From Limoniibacter sp. (GTDB lineage Bacteria > Pseudomonadota > Alphaproteobacteria > Rhizobiales > Rhizobiaceae): a DNA stretch of 63,889 bases. Of this stretch, positions 31,180 through 63,889 are shown one piece after another. The DNA is taken from NCBI GenBank assembly GCA_031374255.1, contig JANMFT010000102.1, positions 1 through 63,889 of the forward strand, given 5' to 3'. Position numbers and translations under genes: made by a program. The first letter of the stretch is position 1. Each line of letters starts with the position of its first letter. Below the pieces are notes generated by a model. That model did no database searches. It was given only the letters and a program-made list of their open reading frames with translations, and was not told the DNA's origin.

Positions 31180-31188
31180 ATTGCCTCC

Positions 31189-34732: not shown

Positions 34733-34766
34733 GGGTTACTTCGATCTGGAAAAAGCGTGCGAAAAT

Positions 34767-34798
34767 GTGGCGGCCGCTACTGAGAGAGCAGCCGCCAC
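34767..34798 (-). other. intercistronic stem-loop between the binding-protein and permease genes
   Basis: GTGGCGGC-16 nt-GCCGCCAC, a perfect 8-bp GC-rich stem, followed on the minus strand by ATTTTC. Confidence 0.45.
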
Positions 34799-34824
34799 AA
34801 TGCCAATCAGACAGGGAGCGTGTC

Positions 34825-35850: not shown

Positions 35851-35892
35851 AATGATTTCTCCCAAGGAAATGCCGTTATCGGCGTGGTTTTC

Positions 35893-35915
35893 AATACTAA
35901 TATATTGGTTATTTA
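35893..35915. promoter_or_regulatory. GntR-type operator candidate (site 1), upstream of the ABC operon
   Basis: AATACTAATATATTGGTTATTTA, with core ACTAATATATTGGT one mismatch from the palindrome. A TTGCTA -35-like hexamer sits adjacent on the operon strand. Confidence 0.45.
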
Positions 35916-35961
35916 TAGCAAGTGTTTTCTTTGGTCGATAAAGCAGTGTGGCAATCCAAGT

Positions 35962-36933: not shown

Positions 36934-36943
36934 GTTTTTTCTT

Positions 36944-38410: not shown

Positions 38411-39294
38411 AACCGCCCCTCATCGAGCCGGTAAGCCTCTGCCGCAGACGTCCATAATACCGCGTGCTGATCTTCTTGATCCAGCTCTGCAATAGCATTC
38501 CGCACCAGATCAACGGTTCTCCCGTAGTCAGATGCCAGCAAACTGACCGGCCAATCCGTACCCATCATACAGCGCCGTGGGCCAAAAATGCGCAACACTT
38601 CGGCGATGTACGGTGTGATTTGTTCCGGTGTCCAATTTGCCCAATCAGCCTCGGTCACCATACCAGACAACTTGCACCAGACATTCGCCTCATACCCGAA
38701 CGGTTCCATCAGCTTGGACCATTGCGAAAAGCCATTTTTGGCAATCTCTGGCTTTGCGATGTGGTCGATGACGAAACGCAGGTCCGGCAAAGCCCGAACG
38801 GTTTCCAGCGCTGCAGGCATCTCTCGCGGGCGGATCAGCAGATCGTAAACCAATCCCCGTGCCTCAACAGCCCGCAGCCCGCGCCATACATCCGGACGGC
38901 ACAGCCAGCGCGGGTCGGCTTCGTCATGCACTTGGTGGCGGATCCCGACCAGCCATTTACCGCCCGGACCAGCCAGCAAATCATCCAGCCTTTCGCCCAC
39001 ATCCGGGGCGGCAAGATCGACCCAAGCCACCACACCGGCGATGAAATCGGTCGCCTCTGCCAGCACCAGAAATGCTTTCGATTCCGCATAGCTTGACCAA
39101 GTTTGCACCAAAATGGTTTTCCGCACCCCCGCCGGAGCGAGCAGCGGGCGCATGTCATCCGGGGTAAAGACCTGGCGGATCGGCAAAACCGAACCAACCA
39201 TCCACGGATAGTCGCCCTTGTCGGGGTCCCAGAAATGGTGATGCGCATCGATAGCAGGCAGTTTTGTGGCTGGAAGTTTGGGGGCAGATGTCAT
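38407..39294 (-). CDS. amidohydrolase-superfamily sugar lactonase candidate (COG3618-like)
   Basis: IDAHHHFWDP metal-binding motif; 295 aa; ATGA overlap with the downstream gene. Confidence 0.85.
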   Translation of the reverse strand: MTSAPKLPATKLPAIDAHHHFWDPDKGDYPWMVGSVLPIRQVFTPDDMRPLLAPAGVRKTILVQTWSSYAESKAFLVLAEATDFIAGVVAWVDLAAPDVGERLDDLLAGPGGKWLVGIRHQVHDEADPRWLCRPDVWRGLRAVEARGLVYDLLIRPREMPAALETVRALPDLRFVIDHIAKPEIAKNGFSQWSKLMEPFGYEANVWCKLSGMVTEADWANWTPEQITPYIAEVLRIFGPRRCMMGTDWPVSLLASDYGRTVDLVRNAIAELDQEDQHAVLWTSAAEAYRLDEGRL

Positions 39295-39297
39295 GAC

Positions 39298-39630
39298 TTA
39301 ATCCATGTGAAAGATGTTTTCCATGTAGGCCCACCACTCGCCGGGCTGGCGCGTCGTCAAGGGGTCCTGACAGGGATCGGTTTCGCGAAGCCACGCTTGC
39401 GTTTCTGGTTCTGCAGCAATGGCGCGGCCGGATGCAGCAAAATCCTCGCCGACATACTCGAAGGTTCCGAACAACAGATTTTCCGGCTCTTTCAGGTAAA
39501 TATCGAAATTACGCCAACCGTTGCGACGCATCGCATCAAGCACACCGGGCCAAACATCCGCATGCAGCCGCTTATAATCTGCAACCCGCTCCGCCTTTAA
39601 CCCGATGACCATACCGAACCGCTTAGTCAA
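39298..39630 (-). CDS. L-rhamnose mutarotase family protein (6-deoxy-sugar/aldose mutarotase)
   Basis: 110 aa; KRFGMVIGLKAERVADYKRLHADVWPGV is typical of the RhaM family. Confidence 0.88.
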   Translation of the reverse strand: MTKRFGMVIGLKAERVADYKRLHADVWPGVLDAMRRNGWRNFDIYLKEPENLLFGTFEYVGEDFAASGRAIAAEPETQAWLRETDPCQDPLTTRQPGEWWAYMENIFHMD

Positions 39631-40357
39631 AGTGCAGCCCTCCGTTCACATCAATTACTTCACCGGTAATGAACCCTGCCAAAGGTGAAGCGAGGAACAT
39701 GACGGCATGTGCCACCTCTTCGGGCTCACAAAACCGCCCTACCGGAATGAGCGCAAGCTGTGTCTGTCGCTGCGCTTCGCTTAACTGTTCGGAAATCATC
39801 GCTGACATCACATATGCAGGGGCCACTGCATTAGACGTCACCCCCTCGCCCGCGACTTCCCGGGCAATTGCATAGGTTAAACCGATCATCGCTGTTTTCG
39901 ACACTGAGTAGGCCGTGCCGGCAGTAAGCCCGCCGCATTTGGCGGCATAAGACGACATGTTGATCACTCTGCCCCAGCGCGCAGCGCGCATTCCCGGCAG
40001 GAAGGCCTGCGCCAGAAGAAACGCAGCATCGACGTTGACGCCGTGCACCCGGTGCCATTCTTGCAATGAGGTCACCGCAATCTTTTCAAAGTTCAATATG
40101 CCGGCATTGTTGACCAAAATGTCGATACGCCCAAAACGCGCCAACACATCTGCGGCCATCGTGGAAACCGCCGCAGCATCCGACAAATCAACAATCACCG
40201 CGTGTCCGCCAAGGGCCTCCGCCATGGTCTTGATTGGTCCTACCGCAACATCAACTAATACGACCAGAGCACCTTGATCCGCCAAAGCCGTTGAGATGGC
40301 TACGCCGATGGCACCTGCAGCGCCTGTGACCAAGGCTACTTTTCCGCGCAGTGTCAT
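39623..40357 (-). CDS. SDR-family oxidoreductase
   Basis: TGAAGAIG cofactor motif and YSVSK catalytic motif; full-length at 244 aa with C-terminal ...VIDVNGG. Confidence 0.88.
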   Translation of the reverse strand: MTLRGKVALVTGAAGAIGVAISTALADQGALVVLVDVAVGPIKTMAEALGGHAVIVDLSDAAAVSTMAADVLARFGRIDILVNNAGILNFEKIAVTSLQEWHRVHGVNVDAAFLLAQAFLPGMRAARWGRVINMSSYAAKCGGLTAGTAYSVSKTAMIGLTYAIAREVAGEGVTSNAVAPAYVMSAMISEQLSEAQRQTQLALIPVGRFCEPEEVAHAVMFLASPLAGFITGEVIDVNGGLHFD

Positions 40358-40515
40358 ATCCGGATTCGTCTTTCGCTCATTTTGCTGCCTTACCGTACTT
40401 CGACCAAACCGCGCGTCATCCTATCTGAGATCCGGCGTTGCAAAAAAAGATGCTGGTTGTTTAGCGGTTCAAACAAACGGGATGTGTCAGAAGCGTCGGT
40501 GTTCAACTTGCTATT

Positions 40516-40535
40516 AAACCAATATATTGGTATTT
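40516..40535. promoter_or_regulatory. GntR-type operator candidate (site 2), in the divergent promoter region
   Basis: AAACCAATATATTGGTATTT contains the perfect 14-bp palindrome ACCAATATATTGGT (40518-40531). It sits in the spacer between TTGCTA (40508-13) and TATTTA (40531-36). Confidence 0.5.
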
Positions 40536-40655
40536 ATTGCCTGTCAACACGGATATTCGTTGCCGAAGGCTTATAGCTTCTGTGCCATAAAAGGTGACCA
40601 GTTGCAAAGCAAATGGGCCGGAGCTATTTGCGGAGTTAATGTAAAGGCGGATAAA

Positions 40656-41447
40656 ATGGCGCGACCCAAGAAAAACGACCCTGATGCACATAGCTCAACC
40701 GACACCAGTATATTGGGGCTGCCAGGTCATCTGATATATCTGATTGATCCGGCGCTGCCAAAGACATCCCAAGTCTACACGATCATGCGTCGTGCGATTG
40801 TTAACCTGCACCTTGCACCCGGCAGCAATGTCAACGAAAAACTGATTTGTGACCAACTGGGCATCTCCCGTACGCCATTGCGCGAAGCGATACTGCAATT
40901 GCAGTCAGAGAACCTAGTTTCAGTGATCCCAAACTCCGGAACCTATGTGTCTAAGATCGACTTGCAGTCCGTGTTTGACGGCCAACTTGTGCGTGACGCG
41001 TTGGAGCTGAAGGTAGTGCGCCTTGCCGCCAACCGCATGACCCCACAGTTTGAACGCGCACTGGATTTCAACCTTCACCAACAAAAACGGCTGGCGGCAG
41101 ATCTCGATTATGACGAATTCTACCGCTTGGACGAGGCTTTTCATGCGATGATCTGCGAGTTCGGTGCTTCTGCCCACATTTGGAAGGTCATCAATAACGC
41201 GAAGGCCCAGTTAGACCGTGTGCGCCGCATGTCTTATCCGCTAGTTACCCATCTTGATTTGGTGCTGAACGAACATATTGCTGTTGTTGACGGTCTGAAA
41301 CAACGGGCGCCCGAGCTGGCAGCCGCTGCCATGAAAATTCACATTGACCGGGTGTTTACTGTGATCCGCCGTCTGATCGCTGAGCGGCGCGATTATTTTG
41401 CTACCGATGCGAGTGAACTGCTTGACGGCTTTATGAACGATCGTTGA
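40656..41447 (+). CDS. GntR-family (FadR/FCD-type) transcriptional regulator
   Basis: Winged HTH ...ICDQLGISRTPLREAILQLQSENLV and a helical C-terminal domain. Start ATG 40656 with AAGGCGG upstream. Confidence 0.88.
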   Translation: MARPKKNDPDAHSSTDTSILGLPGHLIYLIDPALPKTSQVYTIMRRAIVNLHLAPGSNVNEKLICDQLGISRTPLREAILQLQSENLVSVIPNSGTYVSKIDLQSVFDGQLVRDALELKVVRLAANRMTPQFERALDFNLHQQKRLAADLDYDEFYRLDEAFHAMICEFGASAHIWKVINNAKAQLDRVRRMSYPLVTHLDLVLNEHIAVVDGLKQRAPELAAAAMKIHIDRVFTVIRRLIAERRDYFATDASELLDGFMNDR

Positions 41448-51066: not shown

Positions 51067-51135
51067 AGCACTAACAGTTGACAAAATAACAAAAGTTCAA
51101 ATAGCTATGATGATAGTTTGATGAGGAGTTTGGAA

Positions 51136-52455
51136 ATGCCGACCAATGTCGCCCTAACCGGCCTGGCCAAAGACTTGGCCGTACGCGCCGATATTGGCCG
51201 CCCGATCCGTATCGGCCTTGTGGGCGCAGGTGAGATGGGCACAGACATTGTCAGCCGCGTTTCGCATATGCAGGGGATCGAGATCGGTGCCATCAGCGAA
51301 TTGAAAGCAGGCGCTGCACGCAAATCGGTGGAGATCGCTTACGGAACCGATGCTTTGGCGCGCGAAGTTTCAATAGCCGATGCTGCAAATGCCGCCATGG
51401 AAGATCGCCAGATAGCCATTACCGATAACGTCGATGCCCTGCTCGACGCGGGTCTGATCGATGTTGTGATTGATGCAACCGGTATTCCATCCGTTGGCGC
51501 CGAAATTGGTTTGCGGGCTATGGAGCGCGGTAAGCATCTTGTGATGATGAATGTCGAGGCGGACGTCACAATTGGCGCATATCTTCGCTCGGAAGCAGAC
51601 CGTTTGGGAGTTGTTTATTCGTTGGGCGCGGGAGATGAGCCCTCATCGTGTATGGAACTGATCGAGTTTGTAAGCGCGATGGGCCACCGCATTATTTCTG
51701 CGGGCAAGGGCAAAAACAATCCGCTGAACATTGATGCGACGCCGGATGTTTACAATGAAGAAGCTGTGCGCCGCCATATGAACCCGCGCATGTTGGTCGA
51801 GTTCGTCGATGGCTCAAAAACCATGGTTGAAATGGCAGCTATCGCCAATGCAACCGGCTTGACCCCCGACAAGCCGGGGATGCACGGGCCAGCTGCCGGC
51901 CGCGATGAATTGAACAAAATGCTGGTTCCGCAAAGTGCCGGTGGTTTACTATCATCCTCCGAAGGGCGTGTGGATTATACAATTGGTAAGGGTGTCGCTC
52001 CGGGCGTCTTTGTGGTTGCAGAAATGGATCACCCGCGTATCCGCGAGCGCATGGAAGACCTCAAAATGGGTGAAGGTCCCTATTTCACATTTTTTAGGCC
52101 TTATCATCTGACCTCACTTGAGGTGCCGCTTACCTGTGCCCGCGCCGTGCTTTACGGAAAAGCAGATATGGTGCCGATGCCAGTGCCCGTTGCAGAAGTC
52201 TGTGCGGTAGCCAAAAAAGCCATGGCCGTTGGCGAAACACTCGATCAAATCGGTGAGTATTGCTATCGCGCTTGGATCATGACGGCGCCTGAAGCGCGCC
52301 AAGCCAATGCCATTCCTTGCGGCTTGCTGGCGGGCGCTAAAGTAACCGCCCCAATCAAAAAGGGCGAATTGATCACCAACGCAAACACTGCCGTGCCGGA
52401 GGGCAGCTTCATCGCTGTGCTCCGCGCGCGGCAAGACAAAATGTTGGGTCTTTGA
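51136..52455 (+). CDS. NAD(P)-dependent oxidoreductase with C-terminal SAF domain (COG4091-like, homoserine-dehydrogenase-like fold)
   Basis: Rossmann motif IRIGLVGAGEMG and a SAF-like C-terminal region. Start ATG 51136 has GAGGAG 7 nt upstream. The ORF opens at 51118. Confidence 0.75.
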   Translation: MPTNVALTGLAKDLAVRADIGRPIRIGLVGAGEMGTDIVSRVSHMQGIEIGAISELKAGAARKSVEIAYGTDALAREVSIADAANAAMEDRQIAITDNVDALLDAGLIDVVIDATGIPSVGAEIGLRAMERGKHLVMMNVEADVTIGAYLRSEADRLGVVYSLGAGDEPSSCMELIEFVSAMGHRIISAGKGKNNPLNIDATPDVYNEEAVRRHMNPRMLVEFVDGSKTMVEMAAIANATGLTPDKPGMHGPAAGRDELNKMLVPQSAGGLLSSSEGRVDYTIGKGVAPGVFVVAEMDHPRIRERMEDLKMGEGPYFTFFRPYHLTSLEVPLTCARAVLYGKADMVPMPVPVAEVCAVAKKAMAVGETLDQIGEYCYRAWIMTAPEARQANAIPCGLLAGAKVTAPIKKGELITNANTAVPEGSFIAVLRARQDKMLGL

Positions 52456-52457
52456 AG

Positions 52458-53456
52458 ATGTTAGCGCCCGATAACCGTCCGTTTGCCATACGCCATTTTG
52501 CGCCCGAAGCTTTGCGCGAAGCATTAAAGAAGATGTATCTCATCCGCCGGTTCGAAGAAGGCGCGGAAGACAGCTACACACGCGGCTTGATCCACGGGAC
52601 AATGCACTTGTCGATTGGGCAAGAAGCAAGCGCGATGGCAACCTGCATGGAGTTGACCGATGCAGACAAAATCACATCAACCCATCGCGGCCACGGCCAT
52701 TGTATTGCCAAAGGTGCCGATGTCGGCCGAATGTTCGCAGAGTTTTTCGGCAAAGAAACTGGCTACTGCCACGGGCGCGGCGGCTCAATGCATATTGCCG
52801 ACGTTAAAACCGGTAACCTTGGCGCAAACGGCATCGTTGGCGGCGGCCTGCCGATCGCTGTTGGGGCTGCATTGTCGGCAAAACGGCTTGGCAAATCCGA
52901 TGTGACGGTGTGCTTTTTTGGCGACGGTGCGAATAATGAAGGCGCTTTCCACGAAGCGCTGAACATGGCCTCGGTCTGGAAACTGCCCGTTATTTTTGTA
53001 TGTGAAAACAACGGATACGGCATGTCGACTTCGACGGCACGGTCAACCGCGGTCAAGTTTATATCCGAACGGGCGGCCGCCTATTCCATGCCGGGTGTTA
53101 CCGTGGATGGAAACGATTTTTCTGCAGTGGCAGAAGCGCTTCACATTGCAATTGCGCGGGCGCGAGCTGGCAATGGGCCGTCTCTGGTAGAGAACTTAAC
53201 GTACCGTTGGCGCGGTCATTCGAAATCAGACCGCAACCGCTATCGCACAAAAGAAGAAATTGAAGACTGGATCAAACGAGATCCAATCGCGCGCTTTCAA
53301 GCCGAACTGATTGCGCATGGTGTTTTGGATGAAGTTGAAGCCGAAGCCGCCGCTGCCGAGGCGATTGCTGACGTGGAGGCTGCTATAGTGTTCGCAAAAT
53401 CCAGCACAGCGCCCAACATTTCTGAAGTCACCCGCTACGTTTATGCGGAGCATTAA
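52458..53456 (+). CDS. TPP-dependent dehydrogenase E1 alpha subunit (acetoin/pyruvate dehydrogenase E1 family)
   Basis: TPP-binding motif [37 protein letters not shown]. The ORF opens at TTG 52452. Confidence 0.92.
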
Positions 53457-53457
53457 A

Positions 53458-54471
53458 ATGAACGTGATCATCCAAGACCAGACCACACGCACTTTGTCTT
53501 ATGCCGAGGCCATCCGCGAAGCTATGGCAATGGCCATGGAAGCTGATCCAACTGTTATTTTGATGGGCGAGGACATCGGTGTTTATGGAGGTGCGTTTCA
53601 GGTAACGCTGGATTTATTGGAGCGCTTCGGCCCTGACCGGGTTATGGATACCCCGATTTCTGAACTCGGTGGCGCTGGCGTTGCAGTGGGTGCGGCGCTG
53701 ACCGGGCTAAAGCCTGTTTTCGAATTCCAATTTTCCGATTTTGCGATGCTGGCAATGGAACAGATCGTCAATCAAGCAGCAAAATTGCGTTATATGCTTG
53801 GCGGTGAAGCGTCAGTTCCAGTGGTATTCCGTATGCCATCAGGCTCTGGCACCGGTGCTGCCGCACAGCACAGCCAAAGCATTGAGGCTTGGTTTGGCCA
53901 TGTTCCCGGTCTGAAGGTGCTGCAACCTTCAACACCGGAAGATGCAAAAGGCATGCTGCTGGCCGCACTGGCTGACCCTGATCCGGTGATGATTTTTGAG
54001 CACAAGCTTTTATACAAAATGAAAGGCTATGTGCCCGCCGGCCATTATTTAACGCCGATTGGCAAAGCGGCTGTGCGCCGCGAAGGAAGCGATGCCACCA
54101 TTGTTGCGGGTTCAATCATGGTGCATCGCGCATTGGAGGCCGCAGAAAAACTGGCCGCAGATAATATCAGCGCGGAAGTGATTGACCTGCGTTCAATCCG
54201 GCCAATAGACCATGAAACCATTTTGGCGTCAGTTCGCAAAACCGGACGGCTCATGGTGGTGTATGAGGGCGTCAAAGCATTTGGCGTCGGGGCAGAAATC
54301 AGCGCGATGGTGGCTGAAAGTGATGCATTTGATTTTCTCGATGCTCCTATCCTGCGCCTTGGCGCGGCTGACGCGCCAGTGCCTTATAATCCCGACCTTG
54401 AACGGGCCTCCGTGCCACAGGTTGCCACAATTGAGGCTGCTGCCCGCCGCCTGACCAGCCGCGAGATTTGA
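53458..54471 (+). CDS. TPP-dependent dehydrogenase E1 beta subunit
   Basis: Typical E1 beta N-terminus ...[29 protein letters not shown]; about 337 aa. ATG 53458 follows GCGGAG. Confidence 0.92.
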
Positions 54472-54472
54472 G

Positions 54473-55031
54473 ATGCCAGTCGAAGTGATTCTGCCCAAGG
54501 TCGATATGGATATGACCCATGGTACGATTGCCGTTTGGCATGTGGCCGAAGGCGACACGGTTCAAAAAGGGGCCGCTTTGTTTGACATTGAAACAGACAA
54601 GGCAGCCATGGAAGTTGAAGCGCCTGCAACTGGAACCTTGCGCCAGATTTCAGCCAAAGCAGGCGACAAAATTGAGGTCGGCACTGTGGTGGCTTGGCTT
54701 TACAGTGCGGACGAGATTTTAGGTCCAGCCATAGAGCCTGCAAATTCTGTGCAGGTTGACAACACGGGGGCGGCTCCACCAGTTCTGATACAGCCCGTCG
54801 AAGTGATCATGCCCAAGGTCGACATGGATATGACACATGGCACATTGGCAGCCTGGCATGTTTCTGAAGGGGCAAGTGTCAAACAAGGAACCACCCTGTT
54901 TGATATCGAAACCGACAAAGCCGCGATGGAGGTGGAAGCGCCTGCGACAGGCACTTTGCATCACATCAATGCAAAGCCCGGCGATAAAATCGCAGTCGGT
55001 TCTGTGGTGGCTTGGATTTATCCTGCAGGTG
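54473..55031 (+). repeat. tandem duplication of the lipoyl-domain coding segment
   Basis: Residues 2-79 and 108-185 align without gaps, with 60 of 78 residues identical by hand count. DNA similarity is visible over about 230 nt. Confidence 0.85.
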
Positions 55032-56083
55032 CGATTGTCGGTGCTATAACACTGTTTGAAGCTGAGATTGAGCCTGCTGCTGTTGAACAAATAGCGGGAC
55101 CTGTGTTGCGTGCCACCCTGCCAAACACAGTTGAAATGACTGCCATTCGCGCCACTCCAGCGGCGCGCAAGGCCGCGCGTATAGCAGGCTTAGCGCTTGA
55201 AACAGTGCGCGGGTCAGGGCCTTTAGGCCGGCGACAGCGCGATGATATTACTCCGGTCACGCGGCCACTACCGGTTGTGGAAGCGCCCCAAACTTGGGTT
55301 CCTGAACGCGGGCCACTATACATCAGCCGGCGGCCCGGTGACGGCATTCCGATCATGCTGATCCACGGTTTTGCAGCCGACAGCCAGTCTTGGGCCCCTT
55401 TTGAAAAAGCGCTTGGCCAGGAACACCCGCTTATACGCGTTGATTTACCCGGTCACGGCAAATCCCCCAAACAAGGCATAAGTAGCTTTCCTGAACTCGT
55501 TAGCATCGTCTCGAAGGCATTCGACCAAGCGACACATGATGTTGGACCTGTGCATTTGCTTGGCCATTCGCTTGGCGGCGCTCTAGCGATTGCTCTTGCA
55601 GATATTCGCGGTCGCAAAATAGCAAGCCTATCGGCTATCGCACCGGCAGGTCTTGGACCGGAGATTGATGCTGATGCGTTGGGCGGTATTGTGCGCGCGA
55701 CCAGAGTTGAAAGCCTTGCCCCATGGCTTCGACGTTTAACGGCCACGCCCGAAGGCATTAGTGATGACTATGCACGCGCGGCAATGTCCTCTCGGTCTGA
55801 CCCCGCATTGCGGGCCGTACAGTCTGAGATGACGGCGGCTTTATTTCCCGACGGCGTGCAATCGTTCGATCTGCGCGCAGCGTTATCGCGATTAAAGTGC
55901 GCCACTCAGATATTGTGGGGGCGGCAAGATCATATTTTACCAAGTCGCCACGCACTTGCAACGAACGGCGATTTTGCTATTCATCTTCTAAATGCGGCAG
56001 GCCATGTGCCGCAAATCGAATGTCCGGAGCGGGTCGCGCGTATCTTCAAGCATTTTGTTGCAGGATATCGGGTACTCGTTTGA
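54473..56083 (+). CDS. AcoC-like E2 component: two lipoyl domains + E3/peripheral-subunit-binding domain + alpha/beta-hydrolase fold
   Basis: Two copies of ...LFDIETDKAAMEVEAPATGTL... (lipoyl-Lys motif). PSBD-like segment IRATPAARKAARIAGLALETVRGSGPLGR. Hydrolase nucleophile elbow GHSLGG. Confidence 0.88.
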   Translation: MPVEVILPKVDMDMTHGTIAVWHVAEGDTVQKGAALFDIETDKAAMEVEAPATGTLRQISAKAGDKIEVGTVVAWLYSADEILGPAIEPANSVQVDNTGAAPPVLIQPVEVIMPKVDMDMTHGTLAAWHVSEGASVKQGTTLFDIETDKAAMEVEAPATGTLHHINAKPGDKIAVGSVVAWIYPAGAIVGAITLFEAEIEPAAVEQIAGPVLRATLPNTVEMTAIRATPAARKAARIAGLALETVRGSGPLGRRQRDDITPVTRPLPVVEAPQTWVPERGPLYISRRPGDGIPIMLIHGFAADSQSWAPFEKALGQEHPLIRVDLPGHGKSPKQGISSFPELVSIVSKAFDQATHDVGPVHLLGHSLGGALAIALADIRGRKIASLSAIAPAGLGPEIDADALGGIVRATRVESLAPWLRRLTATPEGISDDYARAAMSSRSDPALRAVQSEMTAALFPDGVQSFDLRAALSRLKCATQILWGRQDHILPSRHALATNGDFAIHLLNAAGHVPQIECPERVARIFKHFVAGYRVLV

Positions 56084-56102
56084 ATGACGGAAAGTCATAT
56101 TG

Positions 56103-57080
56103 ATGCTATCCATCACACCGTCACTCGTTTCCCAAAGTGATGCTGATCGGCTAAGAGCCCGCGCAGTGTGGTTGTACCATGTTGAGGGATTAACCCAGAA
56201 TGACATCGCCAAGCAATTGGGCATCAACAGGATTATGGTTGTAAGGCTTTTGGCTGATGCGCGGCGGCGCAATGAAGTTCGGGTCACAATTTCAGCACCT
56301 CTGACCGAATTGATGCAAATCGAGCGCGAGGTCGAGTTAAAGTATGGCATCGGACGCGTTATTGTCGCGCCATTTTCCGACCCAGAAGGCGACCCTGTCA
56401 AAGTCATTGCCGCTGCTGCCGGCGCTTTCATATCCGCTGAAATGAAAGCTGGAATGACTGTCGGCGTTGGTTGGGGACGCACACTTTACAACACTTTGCC
56501 GTTTATTTCGGGCGAAACTCTTGAGGATTTCCGTGTTGTCTCACTGCTTGGTGGCATTGCGGCGGCGCGGCGTTTTAACCCTGCTGAGTTTGCGTGGCAA
56601 TTTGCCGAACTGTTTCAAGGCGAAGGTTTTCTCATACCCGCCCCCGCTGTGGTTGACAGTCCCGATACAAAATATGCGCTGTTGGAGCGATGCGGCCTGT
56701 CTGCGATTTTTGAAATGGCAGACAAGCTCGACATCGCGCTTTTATCTGTCGGTGGCATTACTACGCTGACAACGAGCTATCGAACAGGTTATCTGTCGGA
56801 AGCTGATCGCAGATCATTGATTGATGCAGGGGCAATTGGCGACGTGCTCTACAACTTCATTGATGCGGAAGGAAATTTGGTTGACCACGAAGTCAACGGC
56901 AGAGTCATTTCCGCCAATTTAACCCGCTTGCGCCGCACCCCCGAACGGGTGCTGATCTCTGGCGGAAAAGATAAGTTTGTTGCACTGAAGGCAGCAATTC
57001 GCACATTAGAACCAACGGTTTTGGTCACTGATGAATATTCCGCCAAGTTTTTATTAGCTAAAGACCTCAGAACAAAATAA
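56103..57080 (+). CDS. SorC/DeoR-type sugar-binding transcriptional regulator
   Basis: N-terminal HTH ...AVWLYHVEGLTQNDIAKQLGINRIMVVRLLADARRRNEVRV and a C-terminal sugar-phosphate-binding domain. Confidence 0.88.
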   Translation: MLSITPSLVSQSDADRLRARAVWLYHVEGLTQNDIAKQLGINRIMVVRLLADARRRNEVRVTISAPLTELMQIEREVELKYGIGRVIVAPFSDPEGDPVKVIAAAAGAFISAEMKAGMTVGVGWGRTLYNTLPFISGETLEDFRVVSLLGGIAAARRFNPAEFAWQFAELFQGEGFLIPAPAVVDSPDTKYALLERCGLSAIFEMADKLDIALLSVGGITTLTTSYRTGYLSEADRRSLIDAGAIGDVLYNFIDAEGNLVDHEVNGRVISANLTRLRRTPERVLISGGKDKFVALKAAIRTLEPTVLVTDEYSAKFLLAKDLRTK

Positions 57081-57230: not shown

Positions 57231-58031
57231 TCAGCCATCTGCCAGCAATTTATGAAACTGCGCTAATTCTAAATCGTTCATTTTCACTAGATTTTCCGGT
57301 TTTGGATAAGCACCATCGCCAACATCAGAGACAAATTCACGAAACGCGGCGATGCGCTCCAATTGCAACCGGTCAAATTCAACTGCAAAATTCCTGTAAA
57401 CCTTGGAGTGCCTTGGCATATGCCCGCGGTTTTGTCCGAGGATGTCTTCGGCAAACAAATATTGCGCGTCGCAACCGGCGCCAGCCCCCATTGACCATAA
57501 CAATAAACCGGTTCGTGTGCTGATTTCACTGGCAACGTCGTCTGGCACTACTTCGATCTCAAGTGCAAAAGCACCGGCAGCTTCGTAGGCTTTGACTTCT
57601 TTCAACAATGCAATTGCTGCCTCAGCTGTTTTAGCCACAGCGCGGAAACCACCGGTCCAGGTTGCACGTGACGGCACAAGGCCAACATGGCCAACGACCG
57701 GAATATGTTCGCGCGCTAAAGCCTCAACTGTTCCAAGCCCACCGCTGCAATAGATTGCGTCCGCTTCCGCCAGCATCATCATGCAGGCAAAGCGGTGAAA
57801 ATCATCGCGGGTACCTGCTTCCAGATGCGTTTTGCCTGTCATTGAAAACAGTGTTGGCGCAAGTTCGCGGTAACGCGGATGGGTCACCAGTTCCGGCGGA
57901 ACAGAAACAATGTCGATACCTGCGGCTTCAGCTGCCGCCGCTTCGTCCAGCGTCATTACCCGCAGCATGGTCAACTGCCGCAGGCCCTTTAGCGTCCGCA
58001 AATCAGCTATAGTCGGTTTTGTGCGGGTCAT
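57231..58031 (-). CDS. ketopantoate hydroxymethyltransferase (PanB)-family paralogue, divergent
   Basis: 266 aa from ATG 58031. VVGHVGLVPS and ALEIEVVP resemble PanB motifs, but the N-terminal GDS-type metal motif as I recall it from E. coli PanB is not evident. Confidence 0.7.
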   Translation of the reverse strand: MTRTKPTIADLRTLKGLRQLTMLRVMTLDEAAAAEAAGIDIVSVPPELVTHPRYRELAPTLFSMTGKTHLEAGTRDDFHRFACMMMLAEADAIYCSGGLGTVEALAREHIPVVGHVGLVPSRATWTGGFRAVAKTAEAAIALLKEVKAYEAAGAFALEIEVVPDDVASEISTRTGLLLWSMGAGAGCDAQYLFAEDILGQNRGHMPRHSKVYRNFAVEFDRLQLERIAAFREFVSDVGDGAYPKPENLVKMNDLELAQFHKLLADG

Positions 58032-58062
58032 TTTGTTGCGCTCACAATCAACTGAAAAACCA

Positions 58063-58401
58063 TCACTCAACCGCCAACTGGACGCGCCCGTCACTAACCC
58101 GAACGGCATGGCAGCGCAGGTTAACGCAAGCCGGGATCCGGATGGCAGCGCCTGTGCGAAAGTTGAAACGCCCATTATGTCTGAGGCATTCAATAGTATC
58201 ATCCATTACCAAACCATCGGCCAGATGCACGCCTTCATGAGTGCACATGCCGTCAGTGGCATGAAAGCTGTCATCTGTGGCGCGGTAAATCGCATAGGTT
58301 TGAGCACCCGCATCAAAGCGCATCACGTCTTCACGGTCGATATCTTCGATACTGCAAACATCAATCCAAATGGTCATATTTGTGGTCATAGTTATCCTCA
58401 A
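58063..58401 (-). CDS. Rieske [2Fe-2S] ferredoxin (MocE-like oxygenase ferredoxin subunit)
   Basis: Rieske ligands CTHEG ... CLRHNG; 112 aa. Confidence 0.88.
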   Translation of the reverse strand: MRITMTTNMTIWIDVCSIEDIDREDVMRFDAGAQTYAIYRATDDSFHATDGMCTHEGVHLADGLVMDDTIECLRHNGRFNFRTGAAIRIPACVNLRCHAVRVSDGRVQLAVE

Positions 58402-58417
58402 GTGTCGCGGGATCTGG

Positions 58418-59563
58418 TCATTCTGCGGCTATGGCCATTTCTAAATTGTGAAATCCGTCTTGGTAGGGGCGTGCGGTTGGCGGCAATGTTTTACGGAAAT
58501 AATGCGCAGGATTGCTGCGTTGCTCGCGCAATGAACGATAGACTTCGAGATAAGCATCGAAAATTGAGCTGTTAGGCGGCGGCAGATCATCCTTGATCAG
58601 CGCGTGTAGCCGCGGCAAAGCGTGATAGGGCACCATCGGGAACATGTGATGTTCAATATGGTAGTTCATGTTCCAGTAAATATACCGGCTGATCGGGTTC
58701 ATATAGACCGTGCGGCTGTTCAGCCGATGGTCGAGAACATTGTCGGCCAGCCCGGCATGCTGCAAATGCCCGCACATCACCATATGCCAGCTGCCATAAA
58801 TGCGCGGCAATCCAATTAGCATCAGCGGTAGCCAAGACCAGAGTGCCAATGCCGCAATGATCGCAATCGCATAGATCGCCATATGAACGCGCGCGGCTAA
58901 CACTGCCTTTGGCCACTCACTGGCGGGAATGTAGTTTTGCTCGTCGGGCGACACGATGCCCACCGAATTGCGGCCTAGGATTTTCAGAGATTGTATCGTG
59001 CCCAAGACATCAAAAAACGCCAATGTCAGCTTCACCAGTTTGGCCGGCCGCATCCATGCAATTTCGGCGTCGCGGCCAACAATATATGTGTCGGTGTGGT
59101 GGCGCGCATGGCTCCAGCGCCAAGTAACGGGGTTGCGCATCACCATAAAGCTGGCAATCTGATAGACCGCATCGTTCATCCATTGGGTACGAAACGCAGT
59201 GCCGTGGCCACATTCGTGCCAGCGGCTGTCGCAGGACGATCCATATAAAACGCTATAAACAAAAAAGAACGGAACACACGCCCAGCTGCCCCAAAACCAT
59301 ATACCTCCAGCTGCCGTGCCAAACAACAAGGCAAACCACAAAGCCGTATCACGCAAAGCAGGGCCATCGCTGCGTTGCATGAGTTCTTTCATGACTTTGC
59401 GCGGTATGTCTGAATGATACCATTCTGCCGATGCCAAACCGATTTCCACAGCGTACCGCCCGTCGCGGCCCAAAAGGCTGTAATCGCGTTTATCCACCGG
59501 GATCGGGGTCAAATCCATTGTCGCACCTTTTTGATTTTCAAAAACTGAATGAGCTGCCGCCAT
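58418..59563 (-). CDS. membrane fatty-acid-desaturase-fold di-iron oxygenase (MocD-like)
   Basis: Three His boxes: HECGH, HARHH and HIEHH. TM segments are present. The ATG immediately follows the upstream stop (TAGATG). Confidence 0.88.
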   Translation of the reverse strand: MAAAHSVFENQKGATMDLTPIPVDKRDYSLLGRDGRYAVEIGLASAEWYHSDIPRKVMKELMQRSDGPALRDTALWFALLFGTAAGGIWFWGSWACVPFFFVYSVLYGSSCDSRWHECGHGTAFRTQWMNDAVYQIASFMVMRNPVTWRWSHARHHTDTYIVGRDAEIAWMRPAKLVKLTLAFFDVLGTIQSLKILGRNSVGIVSPDEQNYIPASEWPKAVLAARVHMAIYAIAIIAALALWSWLPLMLIGLPRIYGSWHMVMCGHLQHAGLADNVLDHRLNSRTVYMNPISRYIYWNMNYHIEHHMFPMVPYHALPRLHALIKDDLPPPNSSIFDAYLEVYRSLREQRSNPAHYFRKTLPPTARPYQDGFHNLEMAIAAE

Positions 59564-60280
59564 CTACCAACCTCCATCTAGGCCAATATTTTGCCCTGAG
59601 ATCATCCGCGCCGAGTCTGAAGCCAGAAACACTGCAAGTTTGGCGACATCGGTTGGTTGAATGCGGGATTTGATCGATTGCCGCTCGATAATCCAGGCAG
59701 CATAGTTCTCAAGGCGTTCAGCAAACACACGGTTTTCGGCTTCAGAAACTACAGCGCCCGGCGCGATTGCATTGACAGTGATGCCATACAATCCAAGTTC
59801 GCGCGCCAGCGCTTTCGTCAGCCCCAAAACTGCACCTTTCGACGCAAGATAGGGTGCATAACCCTCCCACTGTCCATTCAACGCCAGTGAAGTCAGGTTG
59901 ATGATCCGACCCCAGCCTTTTGCCTTCATGGCTGGCGCACAGGCCCGCACCAGCGCGAATACTGCCGATGAATTGACGCGCAGCTGGGTTTCATAATCTT
60001 CTAAACTGAACGCTTCAAACGGCCGATTTATAATCAGAGCGGCGTTGTTGACCAGAATATCAAACGGGCCAGCCGCAACCACTTGGGCTTGTGCAGCCGC
60101 CAAATTATTAAGGTCAACACCGAGCCAGCCCGTACCTTCGGGCAGGGTTGCGGCATCAAGATCTGGGCGGTCAAGAACTGTTACACCTGCACCCGCCGCT
60201 AAAAACGCTTGCACCATCGCTTGCCCAATACAGCCAAGTCCTCCGGTGATGAGCGCATGTTTTCCGGTCAGCTCAATCAT
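59564..60280 (-). CDS. SDR-family oxidoreductase
   Basis: TGGLGCIG cofactor motif and YLASK catalytic motif; 238 aa. Confidence 0.88.
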   Translation of the reverse strand: MIELTGKHALITGGLGCIGQAMVQAFLAAGAGVTVLDRPDLDAATLPEGTGWLGVDLNNLAAAQAQVVAAGPFDILVNNAALIINRPFEAFSLEDYETQLRVNSSAVFALVRACAPAMKAKGWGRIINLTSLALNGQWEGYAPYLASKGAVLGLTKALARELGLYGITVNAIAPGAVVSEAENRVFAERLENYAAWIIERQSIKSRIQPTDVAKLAVFLASDSARMISGQNIGLDGGW

Positions 60281-61018
60281 TTAAAGAACCGTATGGACTT
60301 CATCAATTGAAGTCTCACCAATCGGCTTATCGAGCACCACTTTGCCCAAAGCCATCGCCACAACCCGGTCACAGCAGGCAAACACGTGATGCATATTGTG
60401 GCTGATAAAGATCGACGTTACGCCTTGCGCTTTTAGCCCTTGGACAAAGCCGATTACTTTGGCAGTTTCTTTAACCGACAAATGGTTTGTCGGCTCATCC
60501 AAAATCATCACCTTGGATTTAAAATGCATGGCGCGGGCAATCGCCACTCCTTGGCGCTGGCCGCCGGACAACTCGCCCACGAGCGCGTCAGGCGATCTTA
60601 AATGCAAATCTACATTGGCAATCGCCGCCATAGATTCGGTGCGCATTTTGCGTTCATCGAGAATACCAAATCCGCCCACCGACCATTTGAGCGGCTCGCG
60701 CCCGATGAACATATTGCGCGAAATCGACATGATCGGAACCATCGAATTATATTGGTAGATTGTTTCGATTCCCAGCCGCATCGAATCTTTGGGGTTACGG
60801 ATATCGGTCGCTTTGCCTTCAACCAAAATCTCGCCTTCGTCTTGGTGGTGGAGACCCGACAGAATGTTAATCAGCGTCGATTTACCTGCGCCATTATCGC
60901 CTACCAAACCTAAGGCCTGACCGGGCATCACATCCAGAGAGACGCCTTTCAGCGCATGCACGCCAGAATACCATTTGTGCAAATTACGAACAGAAATAAT
61001 CGGTGTTTCAGTTGTCAT
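60281..61018 (-). CDS. sugar ABC transporter ATP-binding protein (single NBD, FrcA-like)
   Basis: GDNGAGKST, LSGGQRQGVAIARA and MILDEPT; 245 aa. Confidence 0.92.
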   Translation of the reverse strand: MTTETPIISVRNLHKWYSGVHALKGVSLDVMPGQALGLVGDNGAGKSTLINILSGLHHQDEGEILVEGKATDIRNPKDSMRLGIETIYQYNSMVPIMSISRNMFIGREPLKWSVGGFGILDERKMRTESMAAIANVDLHLRSPDALVGELSGGQRQGVAIARAMHFKSKVMILDEPTNHLSVKETAKVIGFVQGLKAQGVTSIFISHNMHHVFACCDRVVAMALGKVVLDKPIGETSIDEVHTVL

Positions 61019-62001
61019 TTCTCAACCTCCACCTTCATGGCGCGGCCACGCTTGCGCAGCCACGAATTGCCGACAACGGCCAAGATTGTGAGTGCACCCA
61101 CGGCAAATTTAAACCAGTTACTATCGACCTGGCTCATCACCATTCCATTATCAATAACGCGGATCAGCACTGCGCCAATAATACCGCCAAGAATCGAGCC
61201 AATGCCCCCGGCCAGCGCCGCGCCGCCAATCACAGCAGCTGCGACGGCTTGCAATTCCAAACCTTCACCGATGGAGGGTAGTGGCGAACCCAATCGCAGC
61301 ACCTGAATTAGACCTGCCAGTCCAGCAAGAACTGAACAAATCATAAAGCAAACGATCTTCACTTTATTTGCAGGTATCCCCAGCGCCTCTGCCGCAGGCA
61401 AATAGCCGCCTGTGGCGCGCACCCAATTTCCGAAATTGGTTTTTGACAGCAGCAGGCTGATGATAATTGAGATGCCCAAAAACCAAAGAAAAGAAGCGCG
61501 GAACAAATCACCGGGGCCGACATAGCTGATGAACAAATGTTCAGGGATATTTGCCATATTCAGCCTTGGCGGAAATCCACCCGAGATGACCACGGTCATC
61601 GACCGCGCCATAAACAGCATGCCCAACGTAGTGATGAAAGAAGGTATTGCAAATTTGATCGTGATCCATCCATTCAGAAACCCGACAAATGCGCTGACCA
61701 ATAAGCCCAGCCCCGTCGCGGGCCAAAACCCCCAACCCGCAACCATCATGACCGCCATCGTCATCGGCATCAGGGCAAATACAGATCCGACCGATAGGTC
61801 AAACTCGCCACAGATCATAAGCAGCGTGACGCCTACCGCCACCAGCCCAACCTCAGGCAAATAGCCAAGCATGCCGCGCATATTGTCATAGCTGAGGAAA
61901 ACCATGTCCGAACGTAACTGAAAGAAAACAACCAATAGCAGCAGCAAAAGGCTTGCCGCCATTTCGGGTTTTTGCAGTGATAACTTCAGGAAACGTCTCA
62001 T
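61015..62001 (-). CDS. sugar ABC transporter permease (RbsC-type)
   Basis: 328-aa polytopic membrane protein; overlaps the ATPase start. Confidence 0.9.
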   Translation of the reverse strand: MRRFLKLSLQKPEMAASLLLLLLVVFFQLRSDMVFLSYDNMRGMLGYLPEVGLVAVGVTLLMICGEFDLSVGSVFALMPMTMAVMMVAGWGFWPATGLGLLVSAFVGFLNGWITIKFAIPSFITTLGMLFMARSMTVVISGGFPPRLNMANIPEHLFISYVGPGDLFRASFLWFLGISIIISLLLSKTNFGNWVRATGGYLPAAEALGIPANKVKIVCFMICSVLAGLAGLIQVLRLGSPLPSIGEGLELQAVAAAVIGGAALAGGIGSILGGIIGAVLIRVIDNGMVMSQVDSNWFKFAVGALTILAVVGNSWLRKRGRAMKVEVEK

Positions 62002-62011
62002 CAGGGCACCT

Positions 62012-62049
62012 TTTCAAAAAAGTCTACGGCGCAAATTGCTGCGCCGTAG
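62012..62049 (-). terminator. intercistronic intrinsic terminator/attenuator after the binding-protein gene
   Basis: Minus strand reads CTACGGCGCA-GCAATT-TGCGCCGTAG (perfect 10-bp stem) followed by ACTTTTTTG. It lies between the binding-protein stop (62070) and the permease start (62001). Confidence 0.6.
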
Positions 62050-62069
62050 GCGTATCCAGTAACGAAAGA

Positions 62070-63047
62070 TCAACGCATACCCTTGGCCGACATTTCCATG
62101 ATGGCATCCACCATAGTTGGCGTTACGATGCCTTGGCCGGTATCAATGTCTGATGGTGCAAGGCCGATTGTTTTGGCCAGATATACCTGCATCACAGGCA
62201 TGAAGCCCTGCATATAAGGCTGCTGATCAACCTGCACTTGCACATAACCTGCTTTCATCTGATCGAGAACTTCCGGCACCAAATCAAAGCCGCCGAGCAG
62301 AACCTTGCCCGGCGCAATACCGCGGTCGGCCAAGACACGGGCAACACCTGCATGCCAAAAACCGGTGTCGAAATATGCGGTGGTTGCAGGGTTTGCCAAG
62401 AGATAGGCACCAACACGGTCACTCACGACCGCAAGGTCGGTGCCAGAGTCAATACGCTCATATTTAATGTCGCGGCTTGGATTGGCTTTGATATATTCAT
62501 CCATGAAGTTCATAACGCCGAGCGCACGTTGCTCTGACCAGTTTTGGCCCGGTGCAGATACGCCCACCAAAACGCGGATCGGGCCCTCGGCCGGGAAATT
62601 TGCCGACTGGGCTTTGCCAAGTGATTTGCCGGCAGCGACAAATCCTTGCCCGATAAACGCTTGACGTGCATTGCCTGCGGCACCCTCTAAATCATCAACG
62701 TTTGAGGCAATCACAACCACACCGGCATCGCGAGCCCGTTTAATGACATCATCAAAAGCAGCATTATCGACAATAGATGTGATCAGCGCATCAGGATTAC
62801 GGGCCAAAGCAGCTTCCATATTAGCCACTTGTTCCTGCACGGAGCCATCGGTTTGCACGTAAACCATCTGACATTTGGCTGAGACCTTGGCGCAGGCGTC
62901 TTCATAGCCTTTTTGCACTGCCTGCCAGAATGTGTTGGACGCGTTAGAATGCACGGTGAAGGCGACATCCAGTGGATCTTGCGCCATAGCGGCGCCTGAA
63001 ACCGTGGACAATAGTGCAACCAAGGCCAATCTTTTTAGGGTTCTCAT
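62070..63047 (-). CDS. periplasmic sugar-binding protein (RbsB/MocB-like)
   Basis: Signal peptide MRTLKRLALVALLSTVSGAAMA; 325 aa. Confidence 0.9.
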   Translation of the reverse strand: MRTLKRLALVALLSTVSGAAMAQDPLDVAFTVHSNASNTFWQAVQKGYEDACAKVSAKCQMVYVQTDGSVQEQVANMEAALARNPDALITSIVDNAAFDDVIKRARDAGVVVIASNVDDLEGAAGNARQAFIGQGFVAAGKSLGKAQSANFPAEGPIRVLVGVSAPGQNWSEQRALGVMNFMDEYIKANPSRDIKYERIDSGTDLAVVSDRVGAYLLANPATTAYFDTGFWHAGVARVLADRGIAPGKVLLGGFDLVPEVLDQMKAGYVQVQVDQQPYMQGFMPVMQVYLAKTIGLAPSDIDTGQGIVTPTMVDAIMEMSAKGMR

Positions 63048-63082
63048 CGTTTGCTCCTCCCATGAAGCGGTTAGCGGCCTTG

Positions 63083-63889
63083 TCAGACCGTAGTTGCGTC
63101 GGACATTCTGCGCGACGTCGTAAAAGCCCGATCCAGATCAGGATGAAGTTCCATCCCCAATCCAGGTCCGGGCGGAACCTTGATCATGCCGTTTTTAACA
63201 GTCGGCAAAGCTGTAACCAGATCGCGGTACCAGCCGCGATAAAACGCCCGCACACCTTCCTGCACCAGCGCATTGGGTGCGTTGAGCGACAGATGCGTGC
63301 TGGCACATAACACCACCGGCCCAGTGCAATCATGCGGGGCTACCGGCAGGTGCCAAGCCTCGGCCATTGACGCTATTTTGCGAGCTTCCGAAATACCGCC
63401 GCACCAGCTTAAATCCATCATGACAACACCGGCGACACCGGTTTCCAAAAGATCACGAAAGCCCCAGCGTGAGCCTAAAGTTTCGGACGCTGAAATTGGT
63501 GCAATTGACGCATTGGCATAGCGCTTTAGGCTCGACAGACTGTCCATTTTAATCGGGTCTTCGTGCCAAAATGTTTGGAAGGGTGCGAGCGCACGGGCGA
63601 TTTGCATCGCTGGCAATAATTGCCATAACCCGTGAAACTCGACCATGATATCCATTTTATCGCCAACGGCCCGGCGGATTTTTTCGAGCGGCTCAAGCGC
63701 TTTTTTGATATCGGGTGCGGAGATATATTGCCCACGCGTTTGCTCTGCGGCGCTGTCAAACGGCCAGATCTTCATCGCCGTGATGCCGTCTTCGAGCAAT
63801 GAGTGCGCCAGCTCGTCTGCACGATGAAGGAAGCCGTTCAAATCGTCAAAATCAGTGTTTTGCCCCAAACCATAATTGGCGGTCACTTG
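63083..63889 (-). CDS. enolase-superfamily (mandelate racemase/muconate lactonizing enzyme family) protein, 5' end outside the window
   Basis: C-terminal barrel domain with metal-ligand-like segments IMVEFHG, FWHEDP and SASETL, plus PVAPHDC. The ORF runs off the right edge. Confidence 0.8.
   Translation of the reverse strand, partial: QVTANYGLGQNTDFDDLNGFLHRADELAHSLLEDGITAMKIWPFDSAAEQTRGQYISAPDIKKALEPLEKIRRAVGDKMDIMVEFHGLWQLLPAMQIARALAPFQTFWHEDPIKMDSLSSLKRYANASIAPISASETLGSRWGFRDLLETGVAGVVMMDLSWCGGISEARKIASMAEAWHLPVAPHDCTGPVVLCASTHLSLNAPNALVQEGVRAFYRGWYRDLVTALPTVKNGMIKVPPGPGLGMELHPDLDRAFTTSRRMSDATTV

Follow-up and report, generated by a model that had tools for sequence, protein, structure and literature searches.

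We have analyzed a nine-gene operon of Limoniibacter sp. that combines a sugar transport system with a MocD-like membrane di-iron oxygenase, a Rieske ferredoxin of the MocE family and a protein resembling ketopantoate hydroxymethyltransferase (PanB). Eight of its genes lie at the end of a 63,889-nucleotide stretch of DNA, here called the window, which is the whole of one contig (JANMFT010000102.1 of assembly GCA_031374255.1; C192 below). We read this GntR/FCD-headed operon, with about an even chance of being right, as a system for the uptake and oxidative breakdown of an O-methylated aldose, in which the methyl group would be removed by MocDE-type demethylation. An earlier note on this DNA had recognized the oxygenase and the ferredoxin within a sugar ATP-binding cassette (ABC) operon. 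It overlooked the PanB-like gene, the head of the operon on another contig (C277), a second oxygenase-ferredoxin pair on contig C409 and a reductase gene on contig C283.

The final 6.7 kb of the window carry eight closely spaced genes on the minus strand (57231-63889). The assembly (474 contigs, 3.12 Mb, 89.5% complete) interrupts the operon at the contig end, and the regulator gene and the N-terminus of the dehydratase are found on C277. The last 141 nt of the window (63749-63889) are identical, as the reverse complement, to an end of C277 (L120:17031-17171). This looks like a k-mer overlap left by the assembler, and joining the two contigs restores a dehydratase gene encoding 400 residues. 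The complete unit begins with a regulator carrying GntR and FCD Pfam domains (C277, L120:15918-16631), located 4 bases upstream of the dehydratase start; beyond it are kdp genes on the opposite strand. The dehydratase is an acid-sugar dehydratase of the enolase superfamily (MR/MLE), with its N-terminal 179 residues on C277 (L120:16635-17171, MR_MLE_N) and its C-terminal 268 residues in the window (63083-63889, MR_MLE_C 199.9 bits). Next come a periplasmic sugar-binding protein (SBP) of CUT2 type (62070-63047, Peripla_BP_4 137 bits), an ABC permease (61015-62001, BPD_transp_2 142 bits), an ABC ATPase of 245 residues with a single nucleotide-binding domain (NBD) and one ABC_tran stretch (60281-61018), and a short-chain dehydrogenase/reductase (SDR; 59564-60280, adh_short_C2 154 bits). 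The oxygenase (58418-59563), the ferredoxin (58063-58389) and the PanB-like protein (57231-58031) complete the operon. The permease and ATPase genes overlap by 4 nt, and the PanB-like gene lies 31 nt downstream of the ferredoxin gene. A promoter and terminator scan of the 3' part of the operon gave counts at or below chance.

The oxygenase matches FA_desaturase (PF00487) with 119.9 bits (E 2e-34) and has the three histidine boxes of the desaturase fold that the earlier note had pointed out, H116ECGH, H152ARHH and H302IEHH, together with further conserved histidines at 260, 269 and 279 and two long hydrophobic stretches. Among 35 diverse family members H116, H269 and H305 are invariant, and histidines 120, 152, 155, 156, 302 and 306 are conserved in at least 90%. 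An AlphaFold model (pLDDT 85, pTM 0.81) was matched by Foldseek with probability 1.0 to the desaturase-like chain of 8xqw and 8xks, which in 8xqw belongs to the Ycf2-FtsHi complex, and to the alkane hydroxylase AlkB (8sbb); no solved protein matches the oxygenase at the sequence level. As is established for the superfamily, membrane di-iron enzymes with such histidine boxes use O2, activated with the help of two electrons, to hydroxylate C-H bonds. Public data hold thousands of homologues, the best of them 87% identical, and those that are named are labelled 'fatty acid desaturase'; clustering at 50% identity (E <= 1e-30) gave 352 clusters. A tree of 90 sequences places the window oxygenase in a 99* clade with those of three related loci (L016-L018), within a starred clade of 19 rows. 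The oxygenase of a fourth locus, L038, falls in the next starred clade, and copies linked to LacI-type regulators form a separate 97* clade. A very long branch separates the oxygenase clade from other desaturase-fold proteins, and it lies far from lipid-type desaturases, a grouping with which would have spoken against the reading of the earlier note. Homologues begin at Met16 (59518), which is the probable true start. The TAGATG junction, once taken as translational coupling of the oxygenase to the SDR, is for this reason doubtful as a coupling signal.

The ferredoxin has the CTH...CLRH motifs of a Rieske protein (Pfam Rieske 68.9 bits) and passes the TIGR02377 model, 'MocE family 2Fe-2S ferredoxin', with 152.8 bits against a cut-off of 136.15. 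Together with the position of the oxygenase clade this upholds the view that the pair is of the MocD/MocE kind. Its open reading frame (ORF) extends to a TTG at 58401, but the ATG at 58389, preceded by GAGGA, is the more likely start; the predicted protein thus has 108 residues and lies 28 nt from the oxygenase gene, instead of the 112 residues and 16 nt given earlier. Among solved proteins it comes closest to CarAc, NDO-Fd and BphF, which are dioxygenase ferredoxins. To place the pair in context, 80 related loci were fetched and their neighbouring genes mapped; the counts that follow are over 83 related loci. A Rieske gene is found near the oxygenase in 73 of them. Natural fusions also occur: of ten long family members, seven are oxygenase-Rieske fusions and one joins oxygenase, Rieske and FNR domains. 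The C-terminal Rieske domain is present in P0123, P0124, P0129, P0132, P0133, P0153, P0170 and P0216, and in P0123 (760 residues) it is followed by an FNR-type NAD-binding reductase domain. Because of this proximity and these fusions, the Rieske protein of the operon is predicted to be the electron partner of the oxygenase. A Rieske gene on contig C295 was considered as a second partner and rejected, since it is nirD and adjoins nirB and nasA.

None of the nine genes encodes a reductase, and a search with Pyr_redox_2 (PF07992) gave no match on C192. The earlier note was therefore correct in seeing no reductase in the window, but this is not unusual, since 41 of the 83 loci likewise have none in cis. 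The genome search that it had suggested returned a single gene of the putidaredoxin/BphA4 reductase class, with Pyr_redox_2 and Reductase_C domains, on contig C283 next to lon. Its product of 402 residues matches the solved ferredoxin reductase 3LXD (E 4e-90) and is 40.6% identical to the product of the MocF-like gene of Sinorhizobium meliloti pSymB. Each of the four sister genomes that share the gene order of the window has one homologue of this reductase (42-49% identity), on a contig other than that of the operon, and a congener has one at 83-92% identity. Since half the related loci do without a reductase in cis and all four sister genomes have a single homologue elsewhere, its absence from the locus is common for this family and indicates supply in trans; the C283 gene is the best candidate. 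The window also holds an Fpr-type ferredoxin-NADP reductase of 259 residues (15976-16755), a weaker second candidate.

The ninth gene is named '3-methyl-2-oxobutanoate hydroxymethyltransferase' in public records. Its product scores 85 bits against TIGR00222 (cut-off 207.55), over profile positions 99-260 only, and 113 against NF001452 (cut-off 272). We aligned it and 55 homologues with three true PanBs. Relative to true PanB, these proteins have another sequence in place of the VGDSLGM (GDS) motif and, after it, a gap of about 19 residues; the aspartate of DxPF (the D84 equivalent) is lost, and KLEGG (the K112/E114 equivalents) has become YC(S/A)(G/A)(G/S). We take the lost positions to be the Mg and keto-acid ligands of PanB (Escherichia coli D45, S46, D84, K112 and E114; 1M3U numbering). 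The GHxGLxP motif, the E-x-VP glutamate and the GAG..CD.Q block are retained, and the family has invariant motifs of its own, DAxYC, TWTGG and PRHxKxYRxF. The alignment thus predicts a protein that has lost PanB's Mg/keto-acid site and kept the rest of the barrel. Neither a true panB (TIGR00222) nor a panC (TIGR00018) was found in the genome of the window, and no panB was found in two congeners, one of them 100% complete. Pantothenate may have to come from outside the cell in this genus. In three other members of the family a true PanB (>300 bits) is encoded in addition to the PanB-like gene beside the oxygenase.

No partner of these oxygenases is more constant than the PanB-like gene. It is present at 56 of the 83 related loci, and among 250 genomes of the order, 19 of the 21 PanB-like genes with at least 52% identity lie within 1.8 kb of a MocD-like gene. 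The neighbours of eleven PanB-like genes were surveyed, comprising ten distant paralogues (36-51% identity) and one close copy (L130, 52%) with no oxygenase nearby. The PanB-like gene lies beside a membrane di-iron protein of the FA_hydroxylase family (PF04116) at three of these loci, beside the alpha subunit of a Rieske oxygenase at one, beside a distant MocD-like gene at two, and beside a Rieske ferredoxin with TIM/MocA genes at three, including L130; of the remaining two, one is next to an RbsD/FucU-domain protein and the other lacks any neighbour of these kinds. At four loci (L123, L124, L127 and L128) a PanB-like protein of 36-47% identity adjoins an FA_hydroxylase-family protein or a Rieske oxygenase alpha subunit, and a reductase, a Rieske ferredoxin and a sugar ABC system are often encoded there as well. 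Such loci resemble parallel 'oxygenase plus PanB-like' modules based on other folds. As the same helper accompanies three oxygenase folds, its role may lie with a by-product that they share. Our best guess, from a small sample, is that it traps formaldehyde or a hydroxymethyl group, plausibly with tetrahydrofolate, the cosubstrate of PanB itself, as acceptor.

Three contexts recur among the related oxygenase loci. Context A is the gene order of the window, found in four loci from metagenome-assembled genomes (L016, L017, L018 and L038; 63-90% identity): regulator, dehydratase, SBP, permease, ATPase, SDR, oxygenase and PanB-like gene, with or without a Rieske gene. The association with the ABC system is thus conserved in these nearest relatives; according to the earlier note, a lack of conservation would have spoken against its reading. 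The gene directly upstream is of the GntR/FCD type in L016-L018, and the upstream ORF in L038 has no Pfam match. L016 and L038 have the order oxygenase, PanB-like, Rieske, and no Rieske gene was seen in the DNA fetched for L017 and L018, so that in this context the ferredoxin gene varies more than the PanB-like gene. Context B, mostly from Mesorhizobium, consists of a MocA-type dehydrogenase, SBP, permease, ATPase, oxygenase, Rieske and PanB-like genes, without a reductase. In context C, a LacI gene (with or without an IolE-like TIM barrel, ABC system and MocA gene) is divergent from oxygenase, Rieske and reductase genes, many of these loci also having a PanB-like gene; examples are S. meliloti pSymB and Rhizobium leguminosarum plasmids, and in the literature such loci are the 'mocDEF' clusters next to fixV homologues. 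The operon was found in neither of two congeners searched, one having only a type B locus and the other no locus at all, and as it is missing from both it is accessory.

The genome of the window has a second MocD/MocE-like pair on contig C409 (L001:3-7266). This pair is divergent from genes for a LacI regulator, an IolE-like TIM barrel, an SBP, a permease, a single-NBD ATPase and a MocA-family dehydrogenase, and its oxygenase is 58-60% identical to that of the window. Neither a reductase nor a PanB-like gene is present there in cis. By its gene content the C409 locus is of the cyclitol type, similar to those of context C. A dinB-type polymerase gene follows it.

The genes for uptake and sugar oxidation in the window form a backbone that is orthologous to an operon of S. 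meliloti pSymA (CP140953.1, 1274758-1282022). That operon has the order FadR/GntR, MR/MLE dehydratase, GntR, SBP, permease, single-NBD ATPase, SDR and aldose 1-epimerase, and contains no oxygenase, Rieske or PanB-like genes. Identities between the two are 76% for the dehydratase, 65% for the SBP, 64% for the permease, 76% for the ATPase and 56% for the SDR. In L016 and L038 an aldose 1-epimerase gene (PF01263) stands between the SDR and the oxygenase, the L016 copy being 43% identical to that of pSymA. These two loci are thus the backbone seen on pSymA, extended at its 3' end by the oxygenase module. Oxidative aldose routes, which lead from aldose to lactone or aldonate and on to a 2-keto-3-deoxy acid, are marked by this combination of mutarotase, SDR and acid-sugar dehydratase. 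A search for GFO/IDH/MocA genes gave no match on C192, in agreement with the earlier statement that the window has no mocA-type gene, and in the whole genome an IolE-like TIM barrel query matched only C409. Because the backbone is orthologous to an operon ending in an epimerase gene, two sister loci retain that epimerase and inositol-type genes are missing, we read the substrate as probably an O-methylated aldose and not a cyclitol or an opine. The expectation of a modified substrate other than that of the rhizopine loci is thus kept in part, with the context favouring an O-methyl aldose over the cyclitol or opine-like compound also envisaged. The simplest reading is that the added module turns a modified aldose into an aldose that the backbone already handles.

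Domain searches agree with the earlier description of a single-NBD sugar importer accompanied by an SDR. Compared with CUT2 systems, the SBP and permease fit, while the ATPase has one NBD rather than two fused ones; the importer is a single-NBD variant of the CUT2 kind, as in the pSymA operon and in systems whose SBP matches the rhizopine SBP model NF052284. The ATPase is 41-47% identical to those of the latter loci. NF052284 is also the best NCBIfam match of the window's SBP, at 117 bits against a cut-off of 420. The protein previously called MocB/RbsB-like is thus confirmed as a sugar-binding protein by Peripla_BP_4, but its likeness to MocB is loose. The best named matches of the SDR are D-xylose 1-dehydrogenase and glucose 1-dehydrogenase, all under their cut-offs, suggesting an aldose 1-dehydrogenase; a comparison with solved structures at E 1e-35, a threshold that was too strict, gave no match. 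The dehydratase matches PDB 4DX3/4DXK, an Agrobacterium tumefaciens-like protein with no named function, at E 6e-157, and all named NCBIfam models score under their cut-offs. The literature on 4DX3, 4DXK and 2POD yielded nothing useful.

From the gene content and families, the conserved order, the partner counts and the reductase encoded in trans we infer each chemical step, and the identity of the sugar, as follows. The single-NBD ABC system would import an O-methylated aldose. Electrons would pass from NAD(P)H through an off-locus reductase, most probably that of C283, to the Rieske ferredoxin of the operon and on to the MocD-like enzyme. This enzyme would hydroxylate the O-methyl group, and the resulting hemiacetal would collapse to the free aldose and formaldehyde. 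The one-carbon product may be handled by the PanB-like protein, for which tetrahydrofolate is the most plausible acceptor. Next, the SDR would oxidize the aldose to a lactone or aldonate, and the enolase-superfamily enzyme would dehydrate the aldonate to a 2-keto-3-deoxy acid that enters central metabolism.

Several observations weigh against this pathway. The aldose 1-epimerase of the sister loci is not found in the window, and the nine genes include no lactonase, kinase or aldolase. The SBP has no close or informative solved relative, and none of its solved relatives points to a methyl-sugar ligand. The nearest homologues of the dehydratase (84%) occur in other contexts without this ABC system, so that the operon does not fix the substrate of this enzyme. 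We know of no folate site for PanB, and transfer to folate is a conjecture. Finally, members of the oxygenase family are known from their genes alone, and even the demethylation by rhizobial MocDEF is a genetic model.

Several other explanations have to be weighed against demethylation of an aldose. The pair might be a hydroxylase that places an OH group on an unactivated carbon-hydrogen bond of the sugar or sugar acid taken up. The methyl carbon of a 6-deoxyhexose would be one such position, by analogy with AlkB, which acts on terminal methyls, and the product would then enter the dehydrogenase and dehydratase route. AlkB is indeed among the nearest solved folds, hydroxylation of C-H and of O-CH3 is not separable by sequence, and the backbone enzymes are compatible with either chemistry. 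Such a hydroxylase would, however, leave no role for the PanB-like protein, which follows these oxygenases in three contexts and occurs with other oxygenase folds as well, and the sole genetic precedent for the family is removal of an O-methyl group; we regard it as unlikely. It seems to us improbable that the enzyme performs some other oxidation, be it a desaturation or the oxidation of an N-methyl or hydroxymethyl group, while the PanB-like protein serves as a catalytic or structural subunit that has nothing to do with one-carbon transfer. Membrane di-iron enzymes perform many types of reaction, and the invariant DAxYC, TWTGG and PRHxKxYRxF residues could form a new active site, but nothing speaks positively for this explanation, and amines would be at odds with a sugar-type SBP and an aldose backbone.

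A methylated cyclitol or opine-like substrate (pinitol, ononitol or a rhizopine analogue), as in moc loci, is suggested by the MocE-family ferredoxin, by the rhizopine SBP model as best curated match of the SBP and the same single-NBD kind of ATPase, and by the inositol-type genes (MocA-family dehydrogenase, IolE-like TIM barrel, LacI) at most related loci. All of these inositol-type genes are missing from the operon itself, and an operon with an aldose 1-epimerase, which sister loci retain, has the orthologous backbone. Known inositol catabolism includes no step for an acid-sugar dehydratase, and the genome has its cyclitol-type locus elsewhere, with the pair on C409; we therefore think a cyclitol or opine rather improbable here. 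The public annotations, 'fatty acid desaturase family protein' and '3-methyl-2-oxobutanoate hydroxymethyltransferase', would make the oxygenase an ordinary lipid desaturase present in the operon by chance and the PanB-like protein the ketopantoate hydroxymethyltransferase of the cell. We give this almost no credence in view of the conserved gene order, the Rieske fusions, the very long branch to other desaturase-fold proteins and the three additional FA_desaturase genes in the genome. The PanB-like protein, for its part, fails both PanB models, has lost the GDS, D84 and K112/E114 positions and coexists with true PanB elsewhere, and the genome has no detectable panC.

Demethylation of an O-methylated aldose, if confirmed, would correct two widespread mis-annotations and add a route for carbohydrate methyl groups into one-carbon metabolism. 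Methylated sugars of plant and algal polymers resist ordinary sugar enzymes, and the only carbohydrate O-demethylase found in the literature searched is a cytochrome P450 (PMC6292453). Genetic knowledge of the MocDE kind goes back to the 1990s. New in the present work are the grafting of the module onto an aldose-to-aldonate backbone for which an oxygenase-free orthologous operon is available for comparison, a host genus without detected pantothenate genes, and PanB-like paralogues that accompany other oxygenase folds. A broader proposal, which we put forward tentatively and rate well short of even, is that the MocD oxygenase, Rieske and PanB-like proteins form a portable cassette that demethylates and captures the carbon in varied sugar and cyclitol pathways. 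The PanB-like protein would then be a new class of enzyme channelling formaldehyde from oxygenase-type demethylations (by the di-iron desaturase fold, the FA_hydroxylase fold and Rieske oxygenases) into the folate pool, and this operon the first case on a methylated aldose. The locus offers an unusually clean test case, being a short operon with defined ends, with an oxygenase-free sister operon on pSymA that points to the demethylated product and apparently no pantothenate pathway in the organism to confuse the role of the PanB-like protein.

The rest of the window contains further sugar and central metabolic genes. The downstream neighbour of the PanB-like gene is a convergent SorC/DeoR gene (56100-57080, plus strand), which was ruled out as regulator of the operon as it terminates a separate plus-strand operon (51118-57080). 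This encodes a DRL-family (DXR-like) oxidoreductase, the alpha and beta subunits of a 2-oxo-acid/acetoin dehydrogenase E1, a lipoyl-E2 fused to an alpha/beta-hydrolase domain and the SorC/DeoR regulator. The segment 41452-50883 contains two PfkB kinases on either side of a UxuA mannonate dehydratase, and a CUT1 ABC system (MalK-type ATPase, two permeases and SBP_bac_1). It is a hexuronate/2-keto-3-deoxygluconate (KDG)-type catabolic cluster and could accept the 2-keto-3-deoxy product of the operon studied here. A second sugar-acid cluster (30070-41447) encodes a CUT2 ABC system of the two-NBD kind, which includes an SBP and two permeases, and a GntR/FCD regulator. Its enzymes are another MR/MLE dehydratase, an SDR, an aldo-keto reductase, a member of the mannitol dehydrogenase family and a lactonase-like Amidohydro_2 protein. 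Further away are putA (proline dehydrogenase/P5C dehydrogenase, 335-3730) and the cellulose synthase genes bcsA, with PilZ, and bcsB (10634-15825).

Among the closest known systems is MocDEF, of the catabolism of rhizopine (3-O-methyl-scyllo-inosamine) in S. meliloti L5-30 and R. leguminosarum, together with the fixV-linked mocDEF-like clusters. Common to both are a desaturase-fold oxygenase and a MocE-family Rieske protein whose locus also encodes a single-NBD ABC system and a MocB-like SBP, and removal of an O-methyl group has been proposed for MocDEF. The window operon differs in having no MocF in cis and no mocA or mocC, and in having its own GntR/FCD regulator, an aldose dehydrogenase and acid-sugar dehydratase backbone, and a PanB-like gene; mocR was not seen in the operon, no search being aimed at it. 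Its oxygenase is 57-64% identical to the rhizobial LacI-type copies and falls in a different starred clade, in a comparison that covered these copies and not authentic MocD. Rhizobium pisi DSM 30132, which has been named as a moc carrier (PMC10107442), has a single oxygenase copy of the LacI type and no moc-box above chance. The rhizopine SBP model NF052284 is passed by 12 of 300 Rhizobiaceae genomes. At six of these SBP loci (L105-L110; genomes G295, G139, G322, G216, G301 and G149) no MocD-like gene lies within the DNA fetched, up to about 10 kb on each side; all six have the SBP, a permease and a single-NBD ATPase, and five have a MocA-like dehydrogenase. NF052284 may thus cover more than rhizopine systems.

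The remaining comparisons concern single functions or folds. In function the operon would resemble the cytochrome P450, ferredoxin and ferredoxin reductase by which marine bacteria demethylate 6-O-methyl-D-galactose (Robb et al. 2018, PMC6292453). Both would achieve O-demethylation of a monosaccharide for sugar catabolism through a three-component electron chain, but the P450 is a soluble haem enzyme with another type of ferredoxin, and the two are alike in function and not in family. AlkB (8SBB, 8F6T) shares the membrane di-iron histidine-box fold (Foldseek TMq 0.49, probability 1.0) and hydroxylates a terminal methyl; it differs from the window oxygenase in showing no sequence-level match, in being bound to AlkG and not to a Rieske protein in 8F6T, and in its hydrophobic substrate. 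The C-terminal two thirds of the PanB-like protein align with PanB (EC 2.1.2.11; 1M3U, 3VAV, 3EZ4, 1O66 and 1OY0) at E about 1e-20, with GHxGL and E-x-VP kept, whereas its altered site, its own motifs, its failure against TIGR00222 and NF001452 and its place beside oxygenase genes set it apart. The pSymA operon, finally, has an orthologous backbone with 56-76% identity and the same order, and differs by its terminal epimerase, its second GntR gene and the lack of the three genes that make up the oxygenase module in the window.

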